Shown in pieces: positions 5,066 to 40,740 of a stretch of DNA of 64,000 nucleotides. The notes under the pieces are model-generated. The model ran no database searches. It was not told the DNA's origin and saw nothing but the letters and a program-made list of their open reading frames with translations. A program made the position numbers and the translations under genes. The stretch is from Phyllosticta citribraziliensis (lineage: Eukaryota): NCBI RefSeq assembly GCF_038025025.1, contig NW_027117338.1, forward strand, positions 2,108,001 through 2,172,000. The letters are read 5' to 3'. The stretch's first letter is position 1. Each line of letters opens with the position of its first letter.

Positions 5066-5283
5066 CACAGTGGGTGTCGAAAGAAATGCGACAGACCTCC
5101 TGGCAATATGAGTGCACTTAGGGAGCATTCATCTGCTGCTATAGTCGCGCCCAAGGAGCATTCATCTACTATTATAGTCACGCTTAGGGAGCATTCATTT
5201 ACTGCTATAGTTGTGCTTAGGAAGCATTCATGTGCTGCCACAGTTAGACCTAGGGTGTCTCATTTCTTTCTTCACCCACTGTG
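5066..5283. mobile_element. Non-autonomous DNA transposon (MITE), copy 1, 218 bp, CACAGTG...CACTGTG ends, 4-bp TSD CCAA
   Basis: Left end CACAGTGGGTGTCGAAAGAAATGCGACA; reverse complement of right end CACAGTGGGTGAAGAAAGAAATGAGACA. CCAA lies at both 5062-5065 and 5284-5287. A homologous copy is at 9215-9420. Confidence 0.88.
5117..5248 (+). repeat. 4 x 33-bp tandem repeat inside the MITE (consensus ~CTTAGGGAGCATTCATCTGCTGCTATAGTCGCG)
   Basis: Units start at 5117, 5150, 5183 and 5216. Differences between units are mostly C/T and G/A transitions. Confidence 0.9.
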
Positions 5284-9214: not shown

Positions 9215-9420
9215 CACAGCGGGCGTGGAGAGAGATGAGACCTGGCAATATGAGTGCGTCTAGGGAGCATTCATTCTCTGTGCCGCTGCATTTGAGGAGC
9301 AGTCGTTGTTGACTACAGCTTTGCCTGAGGAACATTCAAATATGCACTGCTGCAGCTAGGGTTAGCAGTCTTTCATGGCAGACAGATCCAGGGAGTCTCA
9401 TTCTATCAACACCCATTGTG
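9215..9420. mobile_element. Same MITE family, degenerate copy 2, 206 bp, 4-bp TSD TGCT
   Basis: Starts CACAGCGGGCGTGG...CCTGGCAATATGAGTGC...TAGGGAGCATTCA, matching copy 1. Ends ...CAGGGAGTCTCATTCTATCAACACCCATTGTG. TGCT lies at both 9211-9214 and 9421-9424. Confidence 0.85.
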
Positions 9421-30241: not shown

Positions 30242-31006
30242 ATGCATCCCGATAGCTCGTCGTTTACGGCCCTCAACATAGCTGGGTCCGCCGTACCAGA
30301 ATGGATGGGCTATTTCACCTTGTCCGCGCAGCCTAATACCGACCTCTGGCGCAAACCGCCGCGCAATGACACGTCTACGGCCCCCATTCTATACACCGCC
30401 CTGCGCAACCCTTTCATAGCCGCTGAGGTGACGGTATCGGCGGACTGGCAGCTCGAATGGGATCAGGCCGGCCTCGTTATATTTGCAGGATCACCTCCAG
30501 GCCGAATCGACAGCTCCAGTCCGTCGCCTCTTTCAAACGATCAGCAACAATCCCCGCAACCGCAACCTCAACCTCGACCGCCACAGCAAAACGCCCCTCC
30601 ACCCGCCTACACGTCTGCTGAGCCCGCTCCCAAATGGGTCAAGCTCGGCCTCGAGTTCAGGAACAATGAGTGCCACGCTACGTCAGTCTGTGCTACGTCT
30701 GATGGGGCAGATTGGGCCATGACGGCGCTGCCGCCCAGTCGCACGCGCCGCGCCGACCTGCGCGTCAAGATGGAGCGCATCGGCTACGCCCTGTGGCTGT
30801 GGTACGAAGACGACCACGGTGGCTGGAAGAAGCTGCGCGAGGTGACGTGGTTCTTCTGGGGCGTCGAGAGCAAGGCGGTCCGAGTTGGCGTATACGCCTC
30901 TCGGCCGGCAAACCTAGCCGCGTCGCTGTACGAGCGTCAACATGGCGGTCCAAGAGTGACGCAACGCAACTTGGTGGTGGAGTTTGAGGGGCTTGAGATA
31001 TTCTGA
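30242..31006 (+). CDS. DUF1349 (Ree1-like, concanavalin-type fold) protein
   Basis: PNTDLWRKPP, WQLEWDQAGLVIF, KWVKLGLEF, LREVTWFF, VGVYASRP. Confidence 0.85.
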   Translation: MHPDSSSFTALNIAGSAVPEWMGYFTLSAQPNTDLWRKPPRNDTSTAPILYTALRNPFIAAEVTVSADWQLEWDQAGLVIFAGSPPGRIDSSSPSPLSNDQQQSPQPQPQPRPPQQNAPPPAYTSAEPAPKWVKLGLEFRNNECHATSVCATSDGADWAMTALPPSRTRRADLRVKMERIGYALWLWYEDDHGGWKKLREVTWFFWGVESKAVRVGVYASRPANLAASLYERQHGGPRVTQRNLVVEFEGLEIF

Positions 31007-31610
31007 GGAGTCGTGTTGTCCTTGGCATTCTTTCTCGTCGTAGCGTTCTAGCTTGCCGTGGGGGTCTCTAGTTTGGCGTTATCTGCGCTCTGCTTGGAAA
31101 ACAAGGTGTCTTTGGATGTTACTGCTTTTGCTTCCAAATTACCAGTGGCCTGTTCTGCTGGAATTGCGAACTACTAGGGACTCACGGTCAAGATGAAAAG
31201 AAATTAACTCTGTCATCTTTTTTCAAAGTGGTTTTCGAAAGGGCAACTGCTCGACACTACGTCTAGACTTCGGGAGCTGTTGTCCTCTACTATGACTGAA
31301 TGTGGAATCCGTCGCCCACAACTATTCATACGCCAGCGGGACTGTGATTCAACACCGGGAAGATGAGCTCAGGGAGCCGACATATTCTCTCAACACCTGC
31401 TGTGGTCTATTTCTACCCTCATATCAATCTACTTCATCATCTAGTCCATTCAAATCTACAAAGATAGCTCGCTTCATGAAGTCTCATTGGCCTGACAATT
31501 CGGAGTCTACTGGTTTTCTTTGACCGCTTCTAATTTTGACTAAGGCATCAAGTCCTAAACTACACCCTCCTTCCGCTTCGCCTAACAAAAAGAGAACAAC
31601 AACACAAAGC

Positions 31611-31800
31611 AAAAAGCAAAATGGCAGAACGTTAGCGAAGGCCAGAGTTGAACTCTGAACCTTCGCTACCGTCCCCCAGCCAAGTACTCATTATTAGACA
31701 ACCGAAGTTGCCGAGTACCCATGAGCAGTGTTCAGGTTTGCGTTTCCCAGGCTAGGATAACATCCGCAAGCTCTTACTCGTCGTACCGGTGCCTTGGGAT
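31611..31800 (-). ncRNA. Candidate structured ncRNA (~190 nt), probably Pol III-type, class unassigned
   Basis: TATATAAA at 31825-31818, an internal GAGTTCAACTC B-box-like motif and T4/T5 runs at the 3' end. Stems include C(UUCG)G and a 9-bp TAGCGAAGG/CCTTCGCTA helix. The G-U pairs work only on the minus strand. Confidence 0.6.
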
Positions 31801-32292
31801 TGAATTCGCTTTTTGGGTTTATATAGGCAATAAATTGGTCACTTGATTTCGCAGTGCAGTCTGAGCTTGAACCCTTCTTGTGTCCATCCACTGTTAGTAC
31901 TCTTGAAATCGATGCCATTCCGCTCCTGCTACCATGTAGGCGTATATTTTGTCACGCCCAGTGTTGTACCTGGTGCATGGTCACTCTCACCTGCACTGCA
32001 GTCCATGACTTTGGCCAACGGATGACTTCCATTTGTAGCAAGTCTAGCAGCACACGTCATCCAATTGTCTCTCTCACAGGGCAGCATTATCAGTTCACTG
32101 TCCTCATGACTGTTAGCCCGTTCAGAAAGAAAGCTGGCCTTGATCGGCGAGGCCCTGCTACCTCTTATCTCCCACATTGACGGCAAGCAACCCAGACACT
32201 GCGGTCCACCACCAAGTTTCTGCCAAATCTCTTTACACAAATCCCTCAACCTGTTGTTCCTGAAATCACTTTCTACACTCTTGATATCAAAG

Positions 32293-33459
32293 ATGAGATT
32301 CAGGACGCTACGGCTTTGGCATATCCTGCTGTCCCTCCTCCTGCTCCCTCTTTTCGCCGCTCTGGCCGTCTCGCTCTACCTGCTCCCCTTCAACAACACG
32401 ATACCCTCAAGTCTCTCACCTCGAGATGATCACAACATGAGCAACAGCTGGAACGACTCTCCAAATCTATCCGACAGCCCCTCCAGCGTCGAGAGCAATT
32501 GCAGTACACATCCAGGGCCAACAACCATAACAGCGCCCACCTCTCAACCCAGCGCCCCATCAGCAATTCCCCAATGCCTCTTCAACGCCACCGCCTGCGG
32601 CGCCATCTTCTCTCTAGTCCAAACTTGCCACGACGAGCTCTTTCCTCCCACCGCCGACAGCGGCAGAGCGGACGACCCGGGCAAAAGCCTCACCATCTCG
32701 CCCACCAACCCGGCGCAAGCGGCGCGGTTGCGCTCCTGCATCTGCTCTCCCTCCTCGTCTCCGTCCTCGGCCGCGGACAAAAACGCAGCCTGGAGCCACT
32801 GCCAGTCCTGTCTGCACAACGACCTTCACGCGTCGCAGGCCAGCCTCGTCGCGCAGACGCGCGCGCTGCAGCGCTTCTGCCGCGCGCCTGGCGTCCCGGA
32901 CGCGGTGGGCTGGCTGCGCGGGTTCGAGCTGTGGATTAGAGAGCTCGCGCCGTGTGCAATAGGCGGCGATGGGAGTGGAAGACGTGTCTTGAGCGGCGGC
33001 GTGACGGGCGTGTTGAGTATGACGGCAACGACAACAGGCGGCGTCACTGCTGCCCAGCAGACGCTGACTTGGTCGTCATCGACGACGAGGACGACGACGA
33101 CAGAGGAGGGTGGGACGCACACGGATGCCCCGGCCGCCAGCGCTGTGACGAGCGTCTACTGGGCTGACGGGCTGACGACGCTGCTCATTGTGATGCCTGC
33201 GCCCTCATCCTCGCCCGCGGGCGGATCCACAGCTGAGCATATGCCGAGCGGAGCTGCCTCTTCATCCTCTCGCTCTACCGCTGACAGCACGGCAGCCGCG
33301 AGTACGGCTGCGGCTACGACAACGACGGCGGCAGAGCAGGCCAGTGCAGCGGTCAGGGGATTCCAAGCACCGCCGGTTGCATACGGAAATGTGGCGTTTG
33401 TGGTGGGTGTGGGAATGTTCTTTGGCTTGGGAGTTGTGCGGTTGGTTTTGGATTGGTGA
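32293..33459 (+). CDS. Secreted or membrane-anchored Cys-domain plus Ser/Thr-rich protein (possible GPI or TM anchor)
   Basis: N-terminal hydrophobic segment, Cys pattern C..C..C..CIC..CQSC..C, a Thr/Ser/Ala-rich stalk and a C-terminal hydrophobic tail. Confidence 0.75.
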   Translation: MRFRTLRLWHILLSLLLLPLFAALAVSLYLLPFNNTIPSSLSPRDDHNMSNSWNDSPNLSDSPSSVESNCSTHPGPTTITAPTSQPSAPSAIPQCLFNATACGAIFSLVQTCHDELFPPTADSGRADDPGKSLTISPTNPAQAARLRSCICSPSSSPSSAADKNAAWSHCQSCLHNDLHASQASLVAQTRALQRFCRAPGVPDAVGWLRGFELWIRELAPCAIGGDGSGRRVLSGGVTGVLSMTATTTGGVTAAQQTLTWSSSTTRTTTTEEGGTHTDAPAASAVTSVYWADGLTTLLIVMPAPSSSPAGGSTAEHMPSGAASSSSRSTADSTAAASTAAATTTTAAEQASAAVRGFQAPPVAYGNVAFVVGVGMFFGLGVVRLVLDW

Positions 33460-35424: not shown

Positions 35425-38400
35425 ATGGATTCCCAAGACAGCTCGGTGCGCCTCTGCCCACTCGCTCTCCAATTTGAGGCCATGCTAAGAAGTGTTGCAA
35501 TAGAAGCCATCCGGCATTCGCCCACCAAGCAAGCTTCCTGCGCCGGCGGGAGGTCTCCCTCGAACCCTCCAGGAAATATCCGCGTCCGATAACAACATGC
35601 GCGCATTTCCAAACCCCTCAAGCCTCGTGCCCTCCAAGAACAAGGCCTCCGGCCGTACGTATATGCCAGTCCAGCAACAGGATATTCAGCAGCTCATGCC
35701 GACTACAGTACCGGAGCCGGCCACGAAACGACAGGCATCCGGAGAGATCAAGTCCAACATTGCGCCTCCAAGGCCAGTCAATAGCACAGTCAAGGCTACC
35801 ACCGCAACGGGCGTCCGTTCGTCCAAATCATCATCGGTTTCTGCTCCATCGACTCGCTCTCGCCAAAACTCGACCCCCTCCTTCGCCAGCAGCTACTCCC
35901 ATGGGGCCAGATCTACCAAAGACAGTCGACCGCACACTTCCATGTCTAGGCACCGTTCTCAGACTCCTGCCAACCGACCGGCGACATCTATGGATAACAA
36001 CAACTCCTCTTCTGGAGGAAAGCGTCCGCAGGGTACAGTACCGCCTTCTCTTTCAACGTATACTGCTTCGAGTTCCAATCCTTCGACTTCCAAGCACAGT
36101 CTTCGCAGAGCACGCAGTCAGGATAGCGGCATGGGCCAATCATTCCACACATATGACAGATCAGTTTCAGCGCATTCTTTTCAGCAACCCCATTCTGGTC
36201 GACTTGTTAAAAAGGCTTCTTGGGATGGTTCGATGGGCTCCATGGAACCTTTTCGCTTTGCGCAGGCTCCTGGATCATTTGATACAATCCCGGAAGATCC
36301 TGAGCCTCCTGCGACCCCTTCTCATATTCCGCGTCTCCAAGTTCAACCCGTTCAGCATTCTGGTCCCTTTGATTCTCAATCATCAGCGTTTTCTCTTGAG
36401 CAAAGCCAGGCCCTTCATTTTCGTTCAACTTCTCCTTCGAAGACCCCCAAGACGTCTCCTTGCAAAGATGTTACGACTCCATTTCTGAACAAAGACTCTA
36501 ACTTGCGTGCTCCACTTCCAGCTTGGGATACCAAATCCCGCCTCGACGAGATGGAGGCCCTTTACGGCGAGCTTCGGCAACAGATGACATCCACGGCGAA
36601 CGAGCGCGAAAACATCGAAGAAAAAATCGAAAATCACAAGGCCAAGAGTATGTCTCTTTCAATCATGGACATTCGATGTGCAGTTTTTGAGCTTGTTTCC
36701 ACGCGATACATGACGACCAGAAAAGGATTGAAGTTAACCCTGGATTTTTTGATTGCAGTCAACGAACTTGAGGCTATCCGATCCCAACTCTCGTCCAAGA
36801 ACGACACGATCCGCAGCGAATTAGAGTCGACAAGGCTGAAACTCTCGCAAACAGAGGTTGCTCTCGAGAGCCTCAAGAATTCTCACAGTTTTGAGCTCAA
36901 AGACTTGAGAAGGCAGCACGAACACGATGTCAAAGACATGCAATTTGCGCACGAGCGTGAGGTCACAAAATTGCGCCTCGAATCGGACAGAAAGGCGGAG
37001 GAGCTGCAGCGGAGTCTTAACCATCAGACCAAGGACGTCAAGAACGAATATGAGGAAAGATTTGCAAGTCTAAAGAGGGATATGGAGGCCCAGCTGGATC
37101 AAGAGCGGCAACGACGCGTCAAGGAGGTGTCGGAGTTGCAAACACAGGCGGAACTCCACGCTCAGAATGCTGGCGTAGATATGGAAAAGAAAGACAGGGA
37201 GCTCCTCGACCTCCGCCGCGAAACCGAGCAGCTCAAGGCCGACATCGAGCGCAAGACTACCCTGGAGAAGAATTTGCGGGACAAGCTTTCAGAGTCGACA
37301 GCAAACAACATGACGCTCGAATCGGCAAATAGCGCCATGAGGGCCAAGATTAACTTTCTCGAGTCTGACAGCCAGGCACAATCTACGGCTTTTGCGGAGC
37401 TCCACAAGCGCATGCAAGAAGCCGTTGATGCAGCTGAAGAGACAAAGGCCAAACTTCGTGAAGAGGAGACCCTTCGACGTAAGCTGCACAACCAAGTTCA
37501 AGAGCTCAAGGGCAACATTCGCGTCTTTTGCCGTGTTCGTCCACCGGCGGAAATCGAGGCTGCAGAGGCTGCTGAGATTGCTTATCCTGACGCTGGAAAG
37601 GACAGCAAGGAAGTTGTCCTTCAGGGTCCTGAGCAGAGAAGCGCCATGGGCAATGTGACTCGCTCCACGAATCCCTTTTCTTTCGACAGGGTCTTTGGTC
37701 CAAAGTCGCAGAATGGAGAAGTATTTGAAGAGATTTCCCAGCTTGTCCAGTCCGCGCTCGATGGATACAACGTCTGCATCTTCTGCTATGGCCAGACTGG
37801 CTCCGGAAAAACGTACACTATGAGTTCACCAGACGGCATGATTCCCCTCGCGGTCCAGCAAATTTACAACACCGCGCAGGAGCTCGAAGAAAAAGGCTGG
37901 CGCTACAAGATGGAGGGCCAATTTGTCGAAGTGTACAATGAGGTTTTGAACGACTTGCTCGGCAGCGCGGAGGAGTTTGACAAGAAGAAGCACGAGATTC
38001 GGCATGACCCGCAAAAGAAGAGCACCGAAATCACTGGCGTCACATCAGTGCCTCTGGACAGTCCTGACAAGGTGCAGTCGATGCTCTCGAACGCCTCGCG
38101 TAACCGTAGCGTCGCTGCGACCATGGCAAACAGCCGCTCTTCGCGCTCCCACTCCGTCTTTATTCTTAAACTCAAGGGCGAGAACTCGATTACTGGCGAG
38201 CGCAGCGAAGGCACCTTGAACCTCGTCGATCTGGCAGGTTCTGAGCGTCTAAGCCACTCGGGAGCTACCGGCGACCGTCTCAAGGAAACGCAAAACATCA
38301 ACCGCAGTCTGAGCTGCCTTGGCGATGTCATCGCTGCGCTGGGCTCGGGCAAGGACGGCACGCACATCCCGTACCGCAACAGCAAACTCACATATTTGCT

Positions 38401-38607
38401 GCAATATTCCCTCGGCGGCAACAGCAAGACCCTCATGTTTGTCATGATCAGTCCTCTGCAGGCGCACTTGCACGAGACTTTGACCAGTCTGAAGTTTGCT
38501 ACCAAGGTAAGGCTCACTGCGCAAATGCTGGTTTTCGTAGCTGACATGTCTAGGTGCACAACACGCACATTGGCACGGCAAAGAGGCAGGCCAAGGTCAA
38601 GGAGTGA
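35425..38607 (+). CDS. klpA: Kinesin-14, C-terminal minus-end motor (KlpA/Kar3); introns ~35446-35503, 36648-36758, 38507-38553, plus optional 36033-36521
   Basis: Neck LRRKLHNQVQELKGNIRVFCRVRP, P-loop GQTGSGKT, switch motifs SSRSH and DLAGSE, and a long coiled-coil stalk. Confidence 0.96.
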
Positions 38608-40642
38608 ACCTCTGCTTAAACTTGTACCCACTCAGACGAGACCCGTCGCGCCTCGATTATCTGCGCGAGACATACTGTACAGAATCCGCTCCCAAAAGAG
38701 GACCAGGACTTCCGGCACAAAGGTGAAGAGTCTTGCTTTCTTGTCTCTTTTCCTTCCATAGCGAGACGACACCTTTCCTATTCCCAGCTCGGCCCCAGCT
38801 CGGCTGGCCGGCCTTGCAACGGACGTTACTTATGACCGGTGTCTGAGGTGTTTTGGCGTTGATTTCTTCTTACTTTGCTTTTCTATTCTCTTTTAACTCT
38901 TCGGGCTTGGCGCCTCTTAGACGCCGCGCCTTGTCTATCCAGTCGTGGCGCATGTTCGTCACCCTGGCTGTCTGCACTTGGAAATCCAGACCAAGCTCAT
39001 AGGCTCGGGTATCGCGACGATGCAGTATACGATTCCAACCCTTTCTTCCGTCATGCCTTGGAGCAGTCGGACGGGTTGTTGAGTGGGCGGTTTTCTTGGT
39101 CGGATTATTTGGATTGGAGTGTACTGGGTTTGGAGGAGTAAGGCGATGATGGGAAGGGCCTGGGGCTGGAAAGGGCGCGGATGGAATCGGGATCTAGGGT
39201 AACGCTGCGATTGAATTGAATTGTTTGATCTTGTTGTACCTATTGACCAATGGGTGGTGTCGAGAACCGGGGTAAGATTTGGTCGAAGGCAAATTGAAAA
39301 ACATGTTGCAATGCGAATCGATTAGAGAGAGCAATATAGAAGGGCAAATTACTGTCCAACTTCGTCGAATTCATAGGCTTGGAAGCACGTTAGGGGAATC
39401 GTATTCTCTGGATGAAGGATGTACCGTTTTGGATGTATGGAGTGCGTCTGACTGAAATATGAAGCTTGGCATCTGGAAAGTAAAGGACGTCCTCCCCTTG
39501 GTTCCGGATTCATCTGCTTCGATTGGAATCAGACTCGAGTATCCTTCTGCAGCATACTGATTTTGCATTTGGGAAATGTTCGCACAAGTCAACCTCTTCT
39601 GCGGCTCCATTTGACTTCTTGAGTTGTAACGAGCTCTTCAGCTTCCTTGCCGCCAAAGCATTCCCGTTTCTTGGAGCACTTGTGAATCAGAAACTCCCAA
39701 TGATATCTGAATGGTAGATTAAAAGTTAAAGAGATCACTCAACGATCCATCCCGCGCGATGTTTGTGGGTCGGCCTAGGATTGACAGACCTGCCTAATCA
39801 GGCTAGCGTTGACGACGGTCTCATCTACATGATTTCTCTCCGCAACGCGTCTCGTCGTGCTGCGACTGATTGCCATCGTCAAATGCAGCTTTTTCCGAGC
39901 TTCGTCGGCCGAGTGCTAGAAGATTGATGCGGTCGCTTAGAGAACACAGGGGCTGAAATCGTTGTTGGGGAAACGCTCGGTGGGACGGGTCGGCAAGCGA
40001 GGCTAGAGATACGCGAGTACGCGAACAAGACAAGCGAGTCTGGAGTTTGCTCTGATGCGCGAGGTCGGTCGCAACGCCATCTTCAAGCCAGGTTACAGGT
40101 GGCAAAGCATGTGTGCCGTTGTTTGTGAGCAACGGGAGGTGGCGTGGAGAAGTGATGTTCAACTACAGGATATTCCACCTTTCGAATACATGGACTGTAC
40201 CCGTTCCTATGCAGCGAAGGGAGCTACGGCTCGATTGAGTGAGCAGGGAACAGTGATATGCCCCGAGAACATTGTAAATTGTGGAAAGCCAACTCAGGGG
40301 GTCATCCATCTTGCGCACCTCCTTTCGAATCGATAACCCATGTACATACGCCGTGAGATAAGCCTTTCAAAGAAACCTGGCCTTCTCAGCATCCGTCACG
40401 CGTGCTTCCGCAGCCGGAACACATGGTCCACAAAGTTCTGCGGGTAGGTGGACAAAAAGGGGTCAAGGGGACCTGACTTGCGGATTATGCGCCACCCCTT
40501 GATCCTGCAAGCTTTTCCTCTTGCCCCAAGGTTCTTGACGATGTCTGAAATGCTGGGAGAGGTATCGTACCCCGCAAAAATAAGTGGAAACCAAAACAAA
40601 TGAAACTCAAAAGAAATAATCGATCTTGCTAGATCAGCTTCC

Positions 40643-40740
40643 TAGTCCCACCGAGGATCGAACTCGGGACCTTTCGCGCTCCACTAGGCTATCAGAAACC
40701 CGGTTGTGAAGCGAACGTCATACCACTAGACCATAGGACT
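40643..40740 (-). tRNA. tRNA-Val(CAC) with a 26-nt intron (40679-40704)
   Basis: Acceptor stem AGTCCTA/TGGGACT, D arm, anticodon stem TTCGC/GCGAA with loop TT-CAC-A, T arm CCGAG-TTCGATC-CTCGG. Mature length 72 nt. Confidence 0.95.

Follow-up and report, generated by a model that had tools for sequence, protein, structure and literature searches.

In this work we analyzed a 64,000-nucleotide (nt) stretch of Phyllosticta citribraziliensis DNA, hereafter called the window, and in particular a short element that is read on the minus strand at 31800-31611 (all coordinates are positions in the window). In our best explanation, to which we give an even chance, the element is an independent minus-strand RNA polymerase III (Pol III) gene of the same kind as the loci for microRNA-like RNAs (milRNAs) of Neurospora crassa, the milR loci; it would probably belong to the same family and, among these loci, is probably closest to milR-2. 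The explanation draws on Pol III-type signals around a stable terminal hairpin, on the likeness to published milR primers and on related copies in sequencing reads. The element has the following parts:

31825-31818, minus strand: TATA box TATATAAA, seen in the sequence, about 18-25 nt upstream of the predicted start
Between the TATA box and the body, minus strand: A-rich spacer, seen in the sequence
31800-31611, minus strand: predicted primary transcript of about 183-190 nt, with both ends predicted
31799-31745, minus strand: 5' domain, a loose irregular hairpin in the predicted fold
31768-31764 and 31741-31737, minus strand: two 5-nt words able to close a junction, seen in the sequence
31744-31721, minus strand: largely unpaired linker, mostly open in the centroid fold
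31720-31682, minus strand: middle hairpin of 9 base pairs (bp), a one-sided 7-nt bulge and 5 bp with a UUCG loop, from sequence and fold
31677-31624, minus strand: 3' hairpin, three paired blocks with 22 bp in total and a small loop at the apex, the candidate milRNA precursor (pre-milRNA), from sequence and fold
31655-31645, minus strand: B-box-like 11-mer at the apex of the 3' hairpin, seen in the sequence
31621-31618, minus strand: T4, candidate Pol III terminator, seen in the sequence
31615-31611, minus strand: T5, candidate Pol III terminator, seen in the sequence, with a T/G-rich tail beyond it

The initial annotation, which was made from the letters of the window, had described the TATA box, the UUCG-capped helix, the long hairpin with its B-box-like apex, the T4 and T5 runs and the T-rich tail, and all of them are present at the positions it gave. 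The Pol III-type signals, i.e., TATA box, B-box-like word and T-runs, are real as sequence features. The junction that had been proposed for the structured body is possible, as both 5-nt words exist, but the minimum-energy fold does without it and pairs 31799-31795 with 31749-31745 instead. We placed the start of the transcript 25-30 nt past the TATA box, where related copies cease to align (31798), and its end at the T-runs. T4 starts 2 nt past the last paired base of the 3' hairpin and T5 follows another 2 nt on, and such a T cluster directly downstream of the hairpin is what Neurospora-type milR loci have. The 22-bp hairpin itself is a candidate stem-loop precursor, able to yield a duplex of about 20 nt, and in the predicted transcript it is preceded by about 120 nt of other RNA. 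The 11-nt word at its apex fits what we take to be the invariant positions of the tRNA T-loop and the B box, and no convincing A box is recognizable by eye at a distance of 30-60 nt ahead of it.

The folding of the element exceeds chance and the signal sits in the 3' and the middle hairpin. On the minus strand, the 190 nt of 31800-31611 reach -72.6 kcal/mol compared to a mean of -54.8 kcal/mol for dinucleotide shuffles (z -3.95, 1 of 200 shuffles as good), and a second shuffle set gave a z of -4.42 with none of 300 as good. The plus strand of the same stretch reaches -57.5 kcal/mol, with a z of -3.08 or -2.65 depending on the shuffle set. The 3' hairpin folds with -33.6 kcal/mol (z -5.5; none of 300 shuffles equalled it) and the middle hairpin with -13.4 kcal/mol on the minus strand (z -3.9, 1 of 300 as good) and -6.7 kcal/mol on the plus strand (z -2.45). 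The initial annotation had pointed to G-U pairs that work only on this strand; among the 67 pairs of the fold there are 7 G-U pairs, in keeping with the minus strand.

In N. crassa, the loci milR-1 to milR-4 together account for 92% of the milRNAs and depend on Pol III, as judged from the inhibitor ML-60218, an rpc5 knock-down and chromatin immunoprecipitation of RPC7 (PMC3547838; this paper and PMC9757828, PMC12498455 and PMC5063351 below are cited from excerpts of their text). RPC7 binds the milR-2 locus and pri-milR-2 drops upon Pol III inhibition, mutating the TATA-like element of milR-1 lowered the binding of RPC7 (Pol III), and a T cluster directly follows the milRNA in all four loci (PMC3547838). 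In the element the T cluster follows the hairpin just as in milR-2. The overall design may agree as well: pri-milR-1 is an intergenic transcript of about 170 nt with a TATA-like element (PMC3547838), and for the element, which is intergenic and has a TATA box, a unit of 183-190 nt is predicted. The legend of Figure 2 in the same paper mentions putative A and B boxes in milR sequences, whereas for milR-1 the excerpted text states that neither box is predicted (PMC3547838), and in this respect the B-box-like word sets the element apart from milR-1. A further difference concerns processing: the production of milR-2 is reported to be independent of Dicer and to need the slicer activity of QDE-2 (PMC3759863; PMC6428129), whereas the 22-bp stem of the element is long enough for Dicer.

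The sequence comparison with the milR loci was done by eye, using the 20-33-nt primers printed by Yang et al. 2013 (PMC3547838). The most extensive run was found for the milR-2 reverse primer, in which 12 consecutive letters equal the plus strand at 31644-31655, i.e., at the apex of the 3' hairpin including the B-box-like word, and about 6 of the remaining 8 letters also match the element with gaps. By our own arithmetic, the probability that a primer contains a 12-letter run by chance is about 2e-4. With 8 consecutive letters, the milR-2 forward primer matches 31803-31796, which is where the 5' end is predicted. For milR-1, the "mut2" primer directed at the TATA-like element shares 9 consecutive letters with 31819-31811 and 2 more beyond the mutated base (31822-31811 in all), the "R" primer agrees in 16 of 20 letters at 31730-31713 in sense direction with a 2-nt gap, and the forward primer matches weakly (about 11 of 17 letters). 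The milR-3 reverse primer has 8 letters in common with 31660-31653, after which the apex seems to differ, and the milR-3 forward primer agrees with 31681-31665, around the beginning of the 3' hairpin, in 13 of its 20 letters, runs of 6 and 4 among them. Taken together, half of the eight primers of milR-1, -2 and -3 contain exact runs of at least 8 letters and the matches are colinear with the anatomy of the element, and the 14 primers of milR-4 to milR-10 contain no run longer than 7 letters. The element and milR-2 are not identical, the primers matching in about 12-16 of 20 and 18 of 20 letters with gaps. As no primer is identical to the window, the element would not be milR-1, -2 or -3 of the reference strain but a paralogue or an orthologue from another species.

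Based on these similarities we propose a mechanism of which we infer every biochemical step, the promoter and termination steps being taken from the sequence and from the published work on the milR-1 promoter. Pol III would be positioned by TBP/TFIIIB on the TATA box, with TFIIIC assisting from the B-box-like word, and would start near 31800 and stop in T4/T5. The resulting transcript of about 185 nt would carry its U-tail directly after the 22-bp hairpin; in its predicted fold, a loose 5' domain is followed by the conserved and open linker, the UUCG hairpin and the terminal hairpin at the U-tail. By analogy, this terminal hairpin would be the pre-milRNA, cut either by Dicer or by the slicer of the Argonaute protein QDE-2 as reported for milR-2, and exonucleases would trim the product to 19-25 nt. 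The product would most likely come from the 3' arm, which adjoins the T cluster.

A comparable arrangement exists in two viruses, bovine leukaemia virus (BLV) and murine gammaherpesvirus 68 (MHV68). In BLV each unit consists of a single hairpin of about 55 nt, and in MHV68 the head is tRNA-like. Like the element, the precursor microRNAs (pre-miRNAs) of these viruses have the hairpin directly before an oligo-T terminator, and termination sets the 3' end of the pre-miRNA. These units are viral and not cellular; the element has about 120 nt of other conserved RNA ahead of its hairpin. Both viral systems have been cited as Pol III parallels for the milR loci (PMC3547838; PMC12498455).

Additional evidence comes from sequencing runs, against which 32 sampled 31-mers of 31540-31880 were matched before contigs were aligned to the window; such contigs give neither transcript ends, strand nor expression level. 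Runs labelled as organisms B, C, D and E share fractions of 0.38, 0.38, 0.22 and 0.09 of the 32 words exactly. For organism D, one contig spans 31302-32117 with 85 differences and 15 gaps in 816 nt, so the element lies at the same locus there. According to our own calculation, evenly spread divergence of this size would leave about 0.6 of the 32 words intact, as opposed to the roughly 7 observed, which means that some block is far better kept than its surroundings. Among the differences listed, none falls between 31565 and 31841. In our reading, the well-kept block would be the element.

Related copies at other places were found in two runs. Run X2 bears the same organism label as the window itself. 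One of its contigs (record 3) matches 31613-31699 apart from 10 differences and 2 gaps, beyond which its flanks are unlike, and this very probably marks a second, diverged locus under this label. The contig shares mainly the 3' hairpin part of the element, and the apex of the middle hairpin is swapped for a different, longer sequence on a retained helix base. In run X3, the contigs listed include at least five (records 6-10) that extend over parts of 31605-31830, each having 7-13 differences, along with further loose contig ends whose flanks are unlike; the sample clearly holds several related genomes or haplotypes. A rise in X3 depth over 31608-31811 was considered as a sign of 6-10 copies and dropped, as summed depth is not copy number and the downstream flank is itself covered by four different contigs.

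The way in which these copies differ is informative. Upstream of 31798 the likeness falls to about 60% by count, and two X3 contigs retain the TATA word at the same distance. All three loose ends on the downstream side are T-runs right after the hairpin and are otherwise unlike. The linker is kept at 31733-31722, since X3 loose ends at 31719 and 31722 go on with the same 12 letters, and one X3 contig (at 31636) has a changed 3' side of the apical stem and retains the part of the B-box-like word that it covers. Such copies, in which TATA word and T-runs persist between flanks that are unlike, show the pattern of a small gene family with its own putative promoter and terminator and not that of an untranslated region (UTR) or a retroposed copy. 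X3 contigs also join over 31389-31564 (176 or 149 nt skipped) and over 31831-31916 (86 nt skipped); some relatives lack parts of both flanks and yet retain the element.

None of the known RNA classes accounts for the element. Rfam 15 at gathering scores over the whole window gave no match to it, Rfam with E values up to 10 over 31300-32100 (801 nt) gave one weak match at 31356-31378 that is unrelated to the element, and the same search over 31595-31835 (241 nt) gave 0 matches. ARAGORN predicted no tRNA in the element. The exclusion of tRNA, 5S, U1-U6, SRP and RNase P/MRP RNAs in the initial annotation is borne out by these searches, in which the models of snoRNAs, riboswitches and ribozymes likewise gave no match to the element, and the Rfam comparison it had suggested as a check yielded no family at either threshold. 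Inspection by eye agrees with Rfam: the defining motifs of U1, U2, U4, U5, U6 and U3, of the SRP Alu domain and RNase P/MRP, and of a thiamine pyrophosphate riboswitch, a telomerase template or a solo long terminal repeat are absent, and no boxes of H/ACA or C/D small nucleolar RNAs (snoRNAs) occur in the right order. The U-runs of the related copies do not keep the form of an Sm site. Among published fungal RNAs, the SART-1 antisense motif of Li and Breaker (PMC5640933) was rejected because the gene downstream of the element codes for a Ser/Thr-rich protein with no Pfam match, a genomic context which does not fit, and the element also fails to match the atypical snoRNA and AU-rich hairpin motifs. 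The Aspergillus fumigatus RNomics paper contains nothing comparable, a literature search for three literal words of the window returned only two papers, both on human genes and unrelated, and metagenome scans with two patterns built from motifs of the window found 0 loci. The initial annotation had left the choice between a milRNA precursor and a new class of fungal non-coding RNA (ncRNA). Primer likeness, Pol III signals and the hairpin partly support the milRNA precursor, with the homology read by eye, and the new class is weakened if the homology to the milR loci holds.

Several observations weigh against a Pol III milRNA gene. The fold of the 5' domain (31799-31745) is not significant, with a z of -1.3 and 37 of 300 shuffles as good. 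The homology to the milR loci is argued from short primers read by eye; as a run of 8 letters is expected by chance about 0.09 times per primer by our own arithmetic, we give weight only to the 12-letter, the 9+2 and the 16/20 matches, and the milR-3 primers as we read them imply an amplicon of about 43 nt, which is oddly short. Conservation appears to span the whole body together with the linker, which is more than a pre-miRNA hairpin needs. Among the runs holding the element stretch, none is on record as RNA, and runs X2 and X7 are RNA by guess only. In X2, record 1 (836 letters, 0 differences) covers 31200-31827, continues below 31200 and ends in an adapter at 31827, upstream of the TATA box. 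In X7, the neighbouring DUF1349 gene is covered by record 13, which reaches 31439, and a further contig (record 14) spans 31481-31618. As these contigs extend beyond both predicted ends, they do not fit a clean Pol III unit of 185 nt.

That the whole body and the open linker appear to be conserved points to some importance of the first 120 nt as well; they could be a processing platform or an RNA with another main role. The latter would make the element a stable, folded Pol III RNA that serves mainly outside silencing, for example as a ribonucleoprotein scaffold or as a guide acting by way of its open linker, and whose small RNAs are by-products, as is the case for fragments of vault RNA, Y RNA and tRNA. 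We consider this unlikely, although the conservation speaks for it: word shares of 0.22-0.38 persist under other organism labels and the flanks diverge, the unpaired linker at 31733-31722 is kept in the related copies, and the apex of the middle hairpin varies on a kept base in the manner of functional RNAs. It would also be in line with the excerpted re-analysis of fungal milRNAs, according to which many loci have reads outside the hairpin and expressed loci yield decay RNAs (PMC9757828). However, no partner, target or protein can be named for such an RNA, Rfam has no match, the 5' domain shows no significant fold, and the likeness to primers of loci with abundant QDE-2-bound milRNAs argues for purposeful processing of the hairpin.

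It is less probable still, and in our view improbable, that the element is part of a longer transcript, either as the antisense image of the 3' UTR of the DUF1349 gene or as the 5' part of a minus-strand Pol II ncRNA of at least 800 nt. The X2 and X7 contigs described above speak for it, with one reaching from below 31200 to the adapter after 31827 and the others covering the DUF1349 gene and 31481-31618. The same adapter type occurs at three X2/X7 contig ends, and this would fit a plus-strand RNA if the library was stranded by a deoxyuridine triphosphate (dUTP) protocol, as we infer. The contigs are, however, silent on strand, ends and level, and their status as RNA is itself a guess. Moreover, the minus-strand fold is better by 15 kcal/mol and has 7 G-U pairs, the copies with unlike flanks keep a TATA word and T-runs for which a UTR has no need, and a start at 31827 would put the TATA box inside the RNA.

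A low-copy repeat without own function, i.e., a short interspersed nuclear element (SINE) with an internal Pol III promoter or a miniature inverted-repeat transposable element (MITE) with inverted ends, is very improbable, because there is no tRNA- or 5S-like head (Rfam to E 10, ARAGORN), no flanking direct repeat of at least 6 nt, a terminal stem at composition level only and a shared locus in organism D, where the element is better kept than its flanks. The points in its favor are the existence of more than one copy with unlike flanks, the B-box-like word, the fact that fungal SINEs can be short and low-copy (PMC5063351, excerpts) and a leader (31830-31801) and trailer (31622-31593) that can pair with -14.9 kcal/mol. 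The fold extended by this stem reaches -83.3 kcal/mol (z -4.55), but we rejected the stem since 19 of 76 A-rich windows pair equally well with the trailer. The promoter word also lies outside the best-conserved body. As for the many degenerate copies by which the initial annotation would have recognized a SINE or a tRNA pseudogene, the 64-kb window holds no second copy of the element, which speaks against such a repeat, and the read contigs hold several related copies.

The element is intergenic and lies between two genes on the plus strand:

30242-31006, plus strand: DUF1349 gene, one flank of the element, whose protein points to Ascomycota in an atlas comparison
32140-33459, plus strand: gene for the Ser/Thr-rich protein, which begins like a signal peptide and has no Pfam match, the other flank

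On the minus strand, a 74-codon open reading frame with an ATG start (31694-31918) overlaps the TATA box and promoter as well as the element's first 100 nt; it is probably due to chance, because it crosses the TATA box and the point at which related copies lose similarity. An AATAAA word on the plus strand (31829-31834) lies just beyond the adapter end of the X2 contig at 31827, and this order is wrong for the poly(A) signal of a plus-strand RNA ending there.

The one tRNA gene of the window (40643-40740, minus strand) has a 28-nt insertion in the anticodon arm and an Rfam tRNA score of 52.5 bits, was not reported by ARAGORN with bacterial settings and has, by eye, the Val anticodon CAC. Its T/G-rich 3' tail with T4, T4 and T5 resembles the tail of the element, and its 5' flank contains a weak TATA-like word at most. 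Elsewhere in the window, a 33-nt unit is repeated three times in tandem at 5117-5248 (within 5099-5274; 74-76% alike over a 66-nt reference), and an adjoining 34-nt word recurs about 4 kb away at 9241-9274 with 91% identity. An open frame of 1085 codons from stop to stop (35504-38761, plus strand) has, by eye, a kinesin-motor-like C-terminal part after a coiled coil.

Returning to the explanation as a Pol III gene of the milR kind, a wider proposal follows the same lines, namely that milR-1, -2 and -3 are paralogues of one family of multi-hairpin Pol III RNAs of about 185 nt, which would be multi-copy, under purifying selection over its whole length and present in other filamentous ascomycetes too, the window holding one member. 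We put this forward tentatively and lean somewhat against it. A literature search that did not extend to the founding description from 2010 found no treatment of milR-1, -2 and -3 as a family and no orthologues outside Neurospora. A possible lead is milR22 of Cordyceps militaris, an intergenic hairpin for which conservation across 15 Sordariomycetes is reported and many of whose reads lie beyond the annotated hairpin (PMC9757828, excerpts). Such reads would fit a larger RNA like the element, to which milR22 may be related.

Fungal microRNA-like RNAs are widely regarded as species-specific and of doubtful standing. A re-analysis from 2022 also found little conservation of fungal milRNAs between species (PMC9757828). 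If the element is indeed a relative of the main Neurospora milR loci that stays at one locus across species and is better kept than its surroundings, these loci would make up a gene family whose members have promoter type and architecture in common, and this family could be traced across genomes, tested for covariation and knocked out in more than one species. One such family would mean one of two things: a first family of fungal miRNA-like genes with deep conservation, or an older, structured RNA that is harvested by the RNA interference machinery, for which the fragments of vault RNA offer a parallel. If so, this raises the question of whether the roughly 120 nt in front of the hairpin serve as a processing platform or are the real functional RNA.

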